This document shows, in pieces, positions 5,480 to 17,888 of a stretch of 64,000 bases of DNA (the stretch's first letter is position 1; each line of letters begins with the position of its first letter). A model generated the notes under the pieces. That model saw nothing but the letters and a program-made list of their open reading frames with translations, was not told the DNA's origin and ran no database searches. Where the stretch lies: the NCBI GenBank assembly GCA_964016885.1, contig OZ024762.1, positions 22,940,001-23,004,000 of the forward strand. Reading direction: 5' to 3'. Made by a program: the position numbers and the translations under genes. The DNA is from Eledone cirrhosa (Eukaryota).

Positions 5480-6880
5480 TATATATATATGTATATATAT
5501 ATATGTATATATATATATATATATGTATATATATAATATATATATATATATATGTATATATATATATATATATATATATATATGTATATATATATATATA
5601 TATATATATATGTATATATATATATATATATATATATATATATGTATATATATTTATATATATATATATATGTATATATATATATATATATATATATGTA
5701 TATATATATATATATATATATATGTATATATATATATATATATATATATGTATATATATATATATATATATATATATGTATATATATATATATATATATA
5801 TATGTATATATATATATATATATATATATATGTATATATATATATATATATATATATGTATATATATATATATATATATATATATATATATATGTATATA
5901 TATATATATATATATATATATATATATATATATGTATATATATATATATATATATATATATATATATATATATGTATATATATATATATATATATATATA
6001 TATGTATATATATATATATATATATATATGTATATATATATATATATATATATGTATATATATATATATATATATATATATATATATATATGTATATATA
6101 TATATATATATATATATATATATATATATGTATATATATATATATATATATGTATATATATATATATATATATGTATATATATTTATATATGTGTATATT
6201 TGTATATATGGTATATATATATATGTATATATATATATGTATATATTTGTATATATGGTATATATATATATATATGTATATATATATATATATGTATATA
6301 TATATATATATATATATATATATATGTATATATATATATATATATATATATATATATATATATATATATATGTAATATATATATATATATATATATATAT
6401 ATATATATATATATATATATATGTATATATATATATGTATATATATATATGTATATATATATATATATTTATATATATATATATATATATTTATATATAT
6501 ATATATATTATATATATTTATATATATATATATATATATATTTATATATATATATATATATATATATATATATATATATATATTTATATATATATATATA
6601 TATATATATATATATAAATATATATATATATATATATATATATATATATATTTATATATATATATATATCTATATATATATATATATATATATATATTTA
6701 TATATATATATATATATATATATATTTATATATATATATATATTTATATATATATAAATATATATATTTATATATATATATATATTTATATATATATATA
6801 TATATATATATATATATATTTATATATATATATATATATATATTTATATATATATATATATATATATATATATATATATA
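5480..6880. repeat. 1.4-kb interrupted (TA)n array
   Basis: TA run with G interruptions to ~6450, then T interruptions. Confidence 0.97.
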
Positions 6881-6949
6881 AAGGACGTAAAATAAGAAAA
6901 TATTTTTTTAAAAAAATTTAAAAAAATTTTTTTCTTACTTAAATTTTCA

Positions 6950-7029
6950 CTCCAACTAATTAGTTTCTGCAATGGGATAAAGACGGTTATGTAATCCAAC
7001 TGTCGAGAATTCATTGCGTCATCAGGAAG
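6950..7029 (-). ncRNA. Type I hammerhead ribozyme, array copy 1
   Basis: cttc-CTGATGA-c-GCAATG..CATTGC-a-GAAA-CTAATTAG-TT-ggag on the minus strand. Confidence 0.8.
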
Positions 7030-7503
7030 TCTATTCTCAGTTAAGTCTCCAGGCAATGCGCGGACACTGGCGGCTCATATAAAAATAATAATAATTCGGT
7101 AGATCGAACAGCTTGCGAGGACTGGATTCTATGTACCGAAATTCTCACTGCTTCAAGTCAAATGGCCGATTCTAAAGAATCAATCACGTGACACAGAGGC
7201 TAGTTAGAAGGAATGGGATGGTAAGATGACTGACGCCTACTAACACCCCAAAAAAAATTTTTTAGAAGTGGTTTTGACAAGTTTGCTCGACAAATCAGTG
7301 ATTTGGAGATAAATATAGATAATTTAATATATCAACTAACATAAGCGCACAGATGCACGCCCATGCCAGCAAATACACAGGTTATGTCATAGTACCTAGG
7401 TGGTTCAATGCAGGAGAATGCAGAACAATAATATAAAGGACGTAAAATAAGAAAATATTTTTTAAAAAAATTAAAAAAAATTTTTTTCTTACTTAAATTT
7501 TCA

Positions 7504-7583
7504 CTCCAACTAATTAGTTTCTGCAATGGGATAAAGACAGTTATGTAATCCAACTGTCGAGAATTCATTGCGTCATCAGGAAG
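7504..7583 (-). ncRNA. Type I hammerhead ribozyme, array copy 2
   Basis: Same motif. Confidence 0.8.
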
Positions 7584-8057
7584 TCTATTCTCAGTTAAGT
7601 CTCCAGGCAATGCGCGGACACTGGCGGCTCATATAAAAATAATAATAATTCGGTAGATCGAACAGCTTGCGAGGACTGGATTCTATGTACCGAAATTCTC
7701 ACTGCTTCAAGTCAAATGGCCGATTCTAAAGAATCAATCACGTGACACAGAGGCTAGTTAGAAGGAATGGATGGTAAGATGACTGACGCCTACTAACACC
7801 CCAAAAAAATTTTTTTAGAAGTGGTTTTGACAAGTTTGCTCGACAAATCAGTGATTTGGAGATAAATATAGATAATTTAATATATCAACTAACATAAGCG
7901 CACAGATGCACGCCCATGCCAGCAAATACACAGGTTATGTCATAGTACCTAGGTGGTTCAATGCAGGAGAATGCAGAACAATAATATAAAGGACGTAAAA
8001 TAAGAAAATATTTTTTTAAAAAAATTTAAAAAAATTTTTTTCTTACTTAAATTTTCA

Positions 8058-15973: not shown

Positions 15974-16147
15974 TTTTCCAGTTATAATATAAAGCGTTCA
16001 ACAGTATTGGAGCAAGATACATGGAAAGTTATATTTAAAATTGTTGGGTTGCAACTAGTAAATATTTATAACTGATATAAAAGCACTCGACAAATATTTG
16101 GAGTATATTTACAATATTAAATAAATGGAAACTATATTTATAAAACC

Positions 16148-16224
16148 ATATTTATTTCATTATATATATTTCGGGGATATCATATTAACAATATGCTATG
16201 CCTTCCTCAGACAAAATACAATAT
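16148..16224 (-). ncRNA. Hammerhead ribozyme in the 5' pLTR of the PLE
   Basis: Identical to 12264-12340; predicted cleavage ~187 nt upstream of the ATG. Confidence 0.7.
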
Positions 16225-17773
16225 AAATAGTTTTATAGATAAATAGGTTCGACATACCGTTACAACACCGACTTCCATTTGAAGAGGTTTAAGCTGGCAG
16301 TGAAAAAATTTTACACAGAGAGAAAGAAAGAGAGAAAAAAAAGAGAGAAAAAAGAGAGAAAAAAGAAAGAAAGACAGAAAACGAAGAAAAGGAAGAAAAA
16401 GAAGAAATGCATGGAACAAAATAGAGAGATGGAGAGATAGATAAAGCGAAGAACTTCATGTAAAGAAACAGAAAGATATATATATATATAGAGAGAGAGG
16501 AAATAGAGATAGATACATATATATATAGAAAATTAGGTAGTGGGAGGTCATTTTGAGTAAATGTATCAATGATACATTTATTTATTTTATTTATTTATTT
16601 AGCTAAATTTTTGATTCCTTCTTTTTATTCTTTTTTTTTTTTTTTTTATTGTTTATTTTTATTTTATTTTTATTTAAACATTCCTCATGAAAAATTAAGC
16701 TACCCTAAAAGCTGATGCTCCAAATATTTTGAATAAACCTTACACTAGATAAACTTCTATATTAAATATAAGAACATATGTAGACCAAATTGGACATCAT
16801 AAACTTTTTGAAATGATCTTTGCTAGATGTGATTTGATAGATAATTTTTGGCTTTGTCTTGTAATGAACTTGGCAATATATTGTCAATTAACTTTGAAGG
16901 GTTGATCTTTGTGGTTTATTTTTATTTTTATTTTTTATTATTGTAGTATTTTATAATATTTTTTATTTTTTTTTTTTATTTTTAATATCTTTAATATGTA
17001 AATTTTTAATACGTAATATTTTTTAATACGTAATATTTTTAATATGTAATATTTTTAATATGTAATATTCTTTCGTAATATTTTTTTAGTTTTCTATTTT
17101 ATTATTACTATTTTATTATTACTTATTATTATTATTGTTATCTTTTTATTTTTTTAGTTTTGTTTCTGATATATATTTTTATTAGTATATTGAAATCTGC
17201 TCTCTATTTCTGCTTGATAGATAATCTTGTAGAGTAAAGACAGGAATAATAATACACATATATGTATGCTCAAATTTTTATACCACATTGAGAATGTTTT
17301 CCGTGAACTTAGAGTTTGCAGAGTGAATCATGTGGATTCGCATGGATGTTTGTAGCTGTCACATAAACATATGAATTTTTTTTATATCTCCCTTACATTA
17401 ATACTTGAGCTAAATAAATAAATAAATAAATGTATCATTGATACATTTACTCAAAATGACCTCCCACTACCTAATTTTCTATATATATATATGTATCTAT
17501 CTCTATTTCCTCTCTCTCTATATATATATATCTCTTTCTGTTTCTTTACATGAAGTTCTTCGCTTTATCTATCTCTCCATCTCTCTATTTTGTTCCATGC
17601 ATTTCTTCTTTTTCTTCCTTTTCTTCGTTTTCTGTCTTTCTTTCTTTTTTCTCTCTTTTTTTTCTCTCTTTCTTTCTCTCTGTGTAAAATTTTTTCACTG
17701 CCAGCTTAAACCTCTTCAAATGGAAGTCGGTGTTGTAACGGTATGTCGAATCTATTTATCTATAAAACTATTT

Positions 17774-17850
17774 ATATTGTATTTTGTCTGAGGAAGGCAT
17801 AGCATATTGTTAATATGATATCCCCGAAATATATATAATGAAATAAATAT
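17774..17850 (+). ncRNA. Hammerhead ribozyme in the inverted pLTR
   Basis: CTGAGGA at 17788, GAAA at 17826, TATATA stem III. Confidence 0.7.
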
Positions 17851-17888
17851 GGTTTTATAAATATAGTTTCCATTTATTTAATATTGTA

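Follow-up and report, generated by a model that had tools for sequence, protein, structure and literature searches.

Penelope-like elements (PLEs) have been proposed as the elements that mobilise metazoan non-LTR (long terminal repeat) retrozymes, the case being a shared hammerhead ribozyme (HHR), co-occurrence, and the phylogeny of the PLE pseudo-LTRs (pLTRs) (PMC7229834; Li, Clavereau and Pollet 2026, bioRxiv 10.64898/2026.07.22.740005). Two questions are left open in the available parts of these papers and of Craig et al. 2021 (PMC8557442): which enzyme moves retrozymes, and how the tandem and inverted insertions of PLEs, with their tails, arise. A 64,000 nt stretch of the Eledone cirrhosa genome (contig OZ024762.1, positions 22,940,001 to 23,004,000; the whole stretch is called the window) carries a tandem array of non-coding hammerhead units close to a PLE, and both insertions are compared here with other copies of their families. 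The array is probably copied into (TA)n by a borrowed protein of a Hydra-type PLE, likely placed by a hairpin lying 7–10 nt behind the start of copying. Its insertion footprint provides direct sequence evidence for mobilisation of the PLE type.

Inverted, 5′-truncated PLE copies, tails and (TA)n targeting are already in print (PMC8557442). The PLE next to the array resembles the Hydra-clade PLEs of that account in its C-terminal GIY-YIG domain, its DKT, RW(K/R) and CxCx5C motifs, the lack of CCHH and the HHR within the pLTR, as well as in its (TA)n target, partial tandem structure, inverted 5′-truncated copy at the 5′ end and tail at one end. The tails described there measure 30–40 nt, against 88–92 nt (PLE) and 118 nt (array) here, and the repeat unit is under 3 kb, against 3.9 kb here; a strict rule of one end of each kind and a hairpin are not described in the available parts of the paper.

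For Poseidon PAc of Anolis, cutting of both strands and extension at AT-rich DNA were found in vitro, with two internal reverse transcriptase (RT) starts bounding the tail; the HHR cut site was not used, and a dimer was predicted (Frangieh et al. 2024, PMC11167929). Two internal starts bounding a tail and an unused HHR cut site are also seen here. The Poseidon starts lie in an AC-rich stem-loop and were called non-homologous to the target, and the available part of the paper reports no strand difference, whereas here the two arms differ in site, a bulged hairpin lies 3′ of each site, the register is biased by short pairing and a non-coding element serves as template. Accounts of metazoan retrozymes, in the parts available, do not describe the ends of insertions, arms in inverted orientation, a pair of fixed starts or any hairpin in common. 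A PLE footprint on retrozyme insertions, a one-site-per-arm rule and the hairpin spacing were not found in the literature, subscription journals not being covered.

The retrozyme array in the window

The region is a single long, interrupted (TA)n tract with two insertions, the array and the PLE. Units are numbered from u1, the base directly 3′ of the predicted GUU cut, and a slash marks the join of an element to (TA)n. The features of the array and its flanks are:

5477–6880, no strand: (TA)n target tract, left flank (TRF and sequence)
6876–9812, minus strand: retrozyme left arm, 5.29 units, 5′ end u476, 3′ end u74/75; the TATAT at 6876–6880 is common to arm and flank
7025, 7579, 8133, 8688, 9245 and 9802, minus strand: the six HHR cores of the left arm
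9810–9812, no strand: head-to-head array junction, 3 nt overlap ATT
9810–11818, plus strand: retrozyme right arm, 3.61 units, 5′ end u416, 3′ end u192/193; C at 11813, then TATAT at 11814–11818 common to arm and flank
9880, 10437, 10994 and 11550, plus strand: the four HHR cores of the right arm
10987–11070, plus strand: type I hammerhead of one unit (sequence and our own descriptor scan)
11819–12138, no strand: (TA)n tract separating array from PLE (TRF and sequence)

The left end of the array reads CCTT/TATAT and the right end TATC/TATAT. An earlier inspection of the letters (the sequence-only reading) had described both the array and the PLE as two divergent arms with their ribozyme-sense 3′ ends facing outward, and every coordinate and motif that it gave for them was confirmed. 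The same applies to the microhomology at the arm junctions (ATT at 9810–9812 in the array, CT at 16603–16604 in the PLE) and to the stagger of the 3′ ends, which is 118 nt in the array and 90 nt in the PLE, where about 120 and about 90 nt had been claimed. As also claimed, all four 3′ ends lie at short internal AT motifs that run into (TA)n, and no arm of either element ends at an HHR cut site.

The unit of the array is 557 nt long (window 10509–11065; copies range from 553 to 557 nt). Its hammerhead consists of a stem I (ACTTC with GGAGT), a CTGATGA core, a long stem II, GAAA and a palindromic stem III (AACTAATTAGTT), and the predicted cut falls after GTT at 11065. On this pairing, as read from the letters and from our descriptor, the array is a type I HHR retrozyme with predicted cleavage. 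The core occurs 10 times in the array of the window, and the descriptor found 187 copies of it in the fetched loci; in Rfam, neither this ribozyme nor that of the PLE was matched, at gathering score or at E up to 10. The interval 6921–11750 contains no stop-free frame that reaches 120 aa, i.e., the retrozyme is non-coding, and the GC content of the array is 0.357, below the 50% expected of retrozymes. Arrays are 99–100% identical within and between loci and have no poly(A) or terminal repeat.

Tandem units that are dispersed and non-coding, the presence of a type I HHR in every unit, and a low GC content (36%) are traits shared with the metazoan non-LTR retrozymes. The array differs from them in that no target-site duplication is visible (within (TA)n it is unreadable), in that the unit cannot be aligned to a pLTR found here, and in unit length, which exceeds the 170–400 nt of one account (PMC7229834) and is within the 51–972 bp of the 2026 preprint. 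It is a new member of a known element class, carrying a new, testable mechanistic signature.

A relative of the 557 nt retrozyme, about 83% identical where alignable, was found at L040:3300–3990 (L numbers denote fetched loci). The letters of its hammerhead stems I and II are altered with the pairs kept, both of the hairpins described below are present, and it is also inserted as arms, the ends of which are the two homologous sites. A search of sequencing runs returned 16 rows with part of the unit and listed no RNA run, which is uninformative on expression either way. The matching reads, from runs of three studies, hold many subfamily variants, and are uninformative on insertion ends because read ends stack at the AATT sites of a restriction site-associated DNA (RAD) library.

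Insertion ends across the two families

Arrays were examined in the window and in 39 fetched loci, the best-scoring 40 of 555 candidates, and the PLE in the window and 40 of 47 listed loci (41 loci); end counts refer to a single assembly. All 59 scored array 3′ ends were located at u74–79 or u193–197, and all join (TA)n. In each of the 19 complete two-arm arrays the arms are divergent, with one end of each kind (chance 0.5^19 = 2e-6). Among the remaining arrays, 20 have a single arm (12 and 8 with the respective ends) and one has an end beyond the fetched stretch. On contig C1, for which pattern lists were complete (90 and 39 ends), 24 of the 25 end pairs within 12 kb are divergent u75 and u193 pairs; none is convergent or divergent with the same site, and one is same-strand. 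Random ends, 3′ targets other than TA and convergent arms, the outcomes that would speak against a common geometry, were sought among the 40 arrays and none was seen.

The PLE ends at TTCCA/TATA (u139/140, site B) and ATTG/TATA (u49/50, site A). Two arms with one end at each site were found at 24 of the 41 loci, single arms at 12, an incomplete copy at one, two B ends at one (L082), and an inverted piece ending elsewhere at three, so that 24 of 25 two-arm copies are of the A+B kind. The geometry that the sequence-only reading had noted for two adjacent insertions is, with 19/19 arrays and 24/25 PLE copies, a rule of both families and not a local accident.

Overlaps at the array junctions range from 0 to 5 nt, with a mean of 1.94 nt (18 junctions) compared to 0.73 nt for random joins (p = 0.0006); two of the 20 junctions, which have inserted bases (L046 and L053), were left out of this statistic. 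The L053 junction (about 5267–5333) holds about four tandem copies of a 16 nt piece of the unit (resembling GAACCACCTAGGTACATT), which suggests repeated realignment of the template during joining. The array shows the features of a PLE insertion, i.e., 5′ truncation, an inverted 5′-truncated copy and a tail at one end. Its tail of 118 nt, like that of about 90 nt in the PLE, is longer than the 30–40 bp described, which lowers the identity with described tails but not the likeness of mechanism.

By their variants, the two arms of one insertion are judged to be copies of one template or one donor. The family polymorphism A521G is concordant between arms in 16 of 16 informative pairs (p = 4e-5), and three private variants are each confined to a single array, where both arms carry them (window, T218C; L056, C229T; L054, G457A). 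Repeated copying of a circle, either monomer or dimer, would fit the private changes that all units of an arm carry (L039, 6/6; L055, 6/6; L063, 5/5; L060 and L061, 2/2) and an alternating private change (L056). Where the pattern is irregular or limited to a single unit (window, L037, L050 and L054), the template could have been a longer circle or a linear multimer, or the change could be local and of later date. The longest arms have 11 units (L043). A 439 nt stagger round a circle was rejected as a rule, since the shared variants of the window and L056 fit the same unit index; those of L054 fit a one-unit shift.

In L1 twin priming, both target strands prime and divergent arms are joined by short microhomology, the arms being non-overlapping parts of one RNA with a random second start. 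Here, in contrast, each start is fixed and the two arms are copies of the same sequence. Twin priming on a single RNA was rejected, as the 5′ ends of the arms do not cluster at the other start.

Other hammerhead arrays with divergent arms lie beside the studied elements at L043:8240–9295 (unit of about 310 nt) and L093:2650–8350 (about 473 nt).

Choice of the end sites

The unit has four in-phase TATAT places, at u75, u179, u193 and u430, and exact genome-wide counts of their joins to (TA)n are 262, 7, 558 and 0, respectively (older subfamilies with differences near u75 are probably picked up by the u193 pattern as well). Since the equal motifs at u179 and u430 are hardly used or not used, AU motifs are insufficient to choose the site. 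It had been claimed that both ends of a break in (TA)n primed reverse transcription by annealing to AU motifs, with enrichment of ends at internal TATA motifs as a check. That both ends serve as primers appears to be so. Enrichment is seen at u75 and u193 and fails at the two equal motifs, and annealing, while it seems to pick the register, is not what chooses the site.

A bulged hairpin lies directly behind each site that is used:

10592–10615, plus strand: bulged hairpin 1 (GTTC-TGCA-loop-TGCA-TT-GAAC), one per unit, 10 nt 3′ of site u75
10710–10732, plus strand: bulged hairpin 2 (CTC-CAAATC-loop-GATTTG-TC-GAG), 9 nt 3′ of site u193

The common form has a YUC base paired with GAR (YUC-stem-UN-GAR), 2 nt bulged out of the 3′ strand and an upper stem that varies. 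In the sense strand of the unit, a descriptor of this form matched at two places and no others, at distances of 10 and 9 nt behind the used sites, and none of 500 shuffles hit both windows, the descriptor having been written after the sites were seen. Applied to the PLE copy of L073, it hit u58 and u149, behind sites A and B, and one other place in 3900 nt; the same fold lies 8 nt behind site A and 7–9 nt behind site B. Both CTCCAAAT and ATTTGTCGAG are common to hairpin 2 of the unit and the site-A hairpin of the PLE. In an unfiltered test, for which all recurrent clusters of TA ends that have a read-through copy were taken from the 0.94 Mb of fetched DNA, a hairpin was present 7–15 nt behind the end in 18 of 62 clusters compared with 0 of 62 control windows (background 0.0009 per base). 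Eight of these 18 sites are from families besides the two studied. Among families, pairing in the upper stem is kept although the letters differ, and the basal pairing changes on both sides, from CTC–GAG to TTC–GAA. The hairpin likely sets the RT start, with short pairing picking the register.

The template at PLE site B is CC-AUGUAU, and 53 loci of contig C1 read CCA/TATA (43), CCATG/TATA (9) or CCATAC (1), with none out of phase; the two main forms also occur at the fetched PLE loci. These registers fit a primer ending in A that pairs with template U. A sister PLE family, also present in the window, separates position from pairing:

19458–19821, no strand: sister PLE family, short two-arm insertion with the same geometry

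Its template reads TTG-AATAT in 30 of 30 read-through arms, and T follows TTG in only 37 of 1699 genome matches (about 98% TTG-A). Nevertheless, all ten partner arms from the same insertions end TTG/TATA, and 37 of 45 ends that keep the TTG read TTG/T, i.e., opposite the mismatched base. The 66 loci on contig C1 comprise 37 TTG/T, 9 TCA/TATA, 5 TTGAA/TATA, 5 TCAT/TATA, 4 TGG/T, 2 TTGA/TATA and 4 others. The commonest start of the sister family is thus at 8 nt spacing with a terminal mismatch, so that position comes first and pairing second. This agrees with, and refines, the non-homologous internal starts of Poseidon in vitro (PMC11167929), and reconciles such initiation with microsatellite targeting: the ribonucleoprotein would give the position and short pairing the register. 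Genome-wide, read-through copies of the sister family number at least about 1700, and its site-A ends some thousands. Telomerase-like primer slippage was considered for ends at u193 (L034, L056, L060, L066 and L068) and rejected, as interrupted TA targets account for them.

If the cut ends of (TA)n picked the priming place purely by annealing to AU motifs in the RNA, the TA-phase homology at all four sites (5/8, 7/8, 7/8 and 5.5/8 matches) would be explained, as would the restriction of PLE site B to the two paired registers, the rare off-site ends at other TA motifs (seven at u179; L103 and L085), and the T found as next template base at 12 of 13 distinct hairpin-type sites, a figure partly built in by the way TA runs are delimited. 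As the sole rule this is improbable and largely refuted by the 7 and 0 uses of equal TATAT motifs against 820, by the longer TATAT motifs of the PLE at u82 and u170, which are unused in 41 loci, by the mismatched starts and partner arms of the sister family, and by the in vitro starts at non-homologous sites (PMC11167929); nor does it predict the strict pairing of one site of each kind. It is equally improbable that the fixed ends are not RT starts but endonuclease (EN) cuts in a cDNA or DNA intermediate, with the hairpin or AT motif read as DNA, that were then joined to (TA)n. Craig et al. (PMC8557442) do ascribe the tail to EN-mediated resolution, which counts against a start set by the hairpin; the Poseidon EN cuts AT-rich DNA at the junction of its own pLTR (PMC11167929), and the end sites here are AT-rich. 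However, the genomic tail ends of Poseidon coincide with mapped RT starts (PMC11167929), the hairpin is not within what is copied into the arm that it marks and keeps G-U pairs, and in the paired spacer G or A gives way to letters foreign to the template, as expected of a primer lying over RNA.

The mover of the array is very unlikely to be a different (TA)n-targeting retrotransposon, namely a long interspersed nuclear element (LINE), with the tandem units arising from later, satellite-like unequal exchange. LINEs are among the candidates of Cervera and de la Pena (PMC7229834), the alignment of the unit to the PLE outside the hairpin is not significant, and in L037 and L050 variants occur in pairs of neighbouring units, which local duplication would fit. 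Nevertheless, the two internal starts (one per strand), the overlapping inverted arms and the shared hairpin all match PLE ends in the genome, and the lack of poly(A) or terminal repeats, the near-identity of the arrays, and the unclustered 5′ ends of the arms, which single-RNA twin priming would require to cluster, are further points against a LINE. Least probable of all, to the point of being hardly credible, is that the two arms stem from an assembly fold-back or an inverted duplication at the DNA level. Palindromes are hard to assemble, the window junction is known from the assembly alone, and L082 is such a case, but a fold-back predicts identical ends and mirrored flanks, whereas the arrays have different ends and unrelated flanks; the array is not a fold-back artefact because its two flanks are not mirror images. 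L082 itself (C4:268669993–268677160) is a PLE, both arms of which end at site B between flanks that match on both sides for at least 150 nt, and represents either an inverted duplication that took in the entire locus or a fold-back made in assembly.

The driver and the neighbouring PLE

Copying by a PLE protein could proceed as follows. Two copies of the protein would bind the two hairpins of one template RNA, and the GIY-YIG domain would cut both strands of (TA)n, each primer ending in A, as the G/T junctions suggest. Each 3′ end would then prime reverse transcription at one of the two sites, where, as the counts show, UA-rich pairing over 1–5 nt of the spacer picks the register without setting the site. 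On a circular template or an uncut multimer, copying would run past the HHR junctions and cover as many as 11 units. The two cDNAs would finally be joined at their random far ends through the 0–5 nt of microhomology seen at the junctions; alternatively, loss of one cDNA would leave a single arm with (TA)n on both sides. A broader proposal, tentative and somewhat less probable than not, is that Hydra-type PLEs and parasitic retrozymes share a portable two-hairpin cis code, each hairpin docking one protomer with the start 7–10 nt upstream, and one RNA (for the retrozyme, a ribozyme-made circle) being copied by two RTs from both strands of one break. If true, a retrozyme needs from the PLE just two 20 nt hairpins, and any RNA with them would be insertable at (TA)n.

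The sequence-only reading had also taken the shared geometry, if so explained, as evidence that the PLE machinery mobilises the non-coding unit. The footprint is good sequence evidence for mobilisation by machinery of the PLE type, but adjacency is no evidence of partnership: the PLE family lies within the fetched 10 kb of only 2 of 39 other arrays, and no array was found in the 40 PLE loci. The two are adjacent because of their common (TA)n target, and many other HHR families occupy the same tracts. The neighbouring PLE is a fair candidate for the driver, and among the end-cluster hairpins compared, none is nearer in letters to the u202 hairpin of the unit than the site-A hairpin of this PLE. 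A search for a parent pLTR of the unit found none in this PLE, other PLE families not having been searched.

Several observations weigh against hairpin-placed copying by a PLE protein. Beyond about 18 nt of hairpin the unit has no significant similarity to the PLE, the staggers differ (118 and 90 nt), and the hairpin is common to many families, so that the driver may be another PLE. No hairpin was found at 44 of the 62 end clusters. Many of these do not mark the end of an element, being internal TA runs or clusters due to chance, but some genuine ends of other HHR families lack it too, among them site B of the sister PLE, with just one upper pair. Hairpin B of the window PLE has a C-A mismatch. 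Of the exceptional PLE loci, the inverted piece ends internally in TA in L085 and outside TA in L096 and L109, and the site-B end of L103 is 8 nt early. Lastly, the variant patterns are mixed and do not separate a circle from a linear multimer.

The features of the PLE are:

12139–16604, minus strand: PLE left arm (pLTR, 737 aa open reading frame (ORF), 3′ region, pLTR)
12139–12701, minus strand: 3′ pLTR, ending at site B (TTCCA/TATA)
12326–12311, minus strand: core of the minimal HHR in the 3′ pLTR, predicted cut before 12276
12220–12201, minus strand: hairpin A in the 3′ pLTR
13760–15973, minus strand: intact 737 aa ORF, RT and C-terminal GIY-YIG (motifs)
15996–16013, minus strand: hairpin B, 7–9 nt 3′ of end site B
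16017–16604, minus strand: 5′ pLTR, a 5′-truncated tandem copy, with HHR at 16210–16195 and hairpin A at 16104–16085
16603–16604, no strand: head-to-head PLE junction, 2 nt overlap CT
16603–17888, plus strand: PLE right arm, an inverted 5′-truncated copy (3′ region, pLTR, HHR core 17788), ending at site A (ATTG/TATA, G at 17886)
17887–18472, no strand: (TA)n tract, right flank (TRF)

The repeat unit is 3.9 kb, and the 3′ region of the right arm has a private 207 nt deletion at 17384. The single ORF runs from RT to GIY-YIG and carries RWR at residue 37 (R for K), DKT at 118, YRDD at 352, the CxCx5C linker CNCRDRSKC at 596, NIVY at 614, YVG at 630, CDLC (CxxC) at 694 and CKH (CxH) at 721; no CCHH pattern occurs in its 737 aa. 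Together with the HHR in the pLTR and the (TA)n target, and by motif match to the list in the available part of Craig et al. (PMC8557442), this identifies the PLE as an intact element with Hydra-clade motifs. Searches of Pfam and PDB with the ORF gave no match; part of the members among its Atlas look-alikes carry RVT_1 and GIY-YIG, which is a lead. Besides the window, the ORF is intact in 2 of 6 other long copies checked (L081 and L084), and copies of the family are 91–99% alike. With its fixed spacing, the hairpin, along with the intact 737 aa protein, can be tested in the existing in vitro assay. Hairpin B of the window PLE reads GAAC where five of five other read-through copies have GAGC, which pairs, so that its basal stem is weakened.

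Elsewhere in the window, a 342 aa stop-free frame at 30464–31492 (minus strand) belongs to another Hydra-like PLE (thumb, linker and GIY-YIG), 5′-truncated beside (TA)n, and a 759 aa stop-free frame at 20723–23002 (minus strand) encodes a LINE-type RT, which we take from its motifs to be of the CR1 type. Further HHR-bearing pLTR fragments, of several families and (TA)n-ended, lie at 656–920, 4385–4760, 27269, 35402–35686, 39711–39854, 53770, 55511–55997 and 63307–63704.

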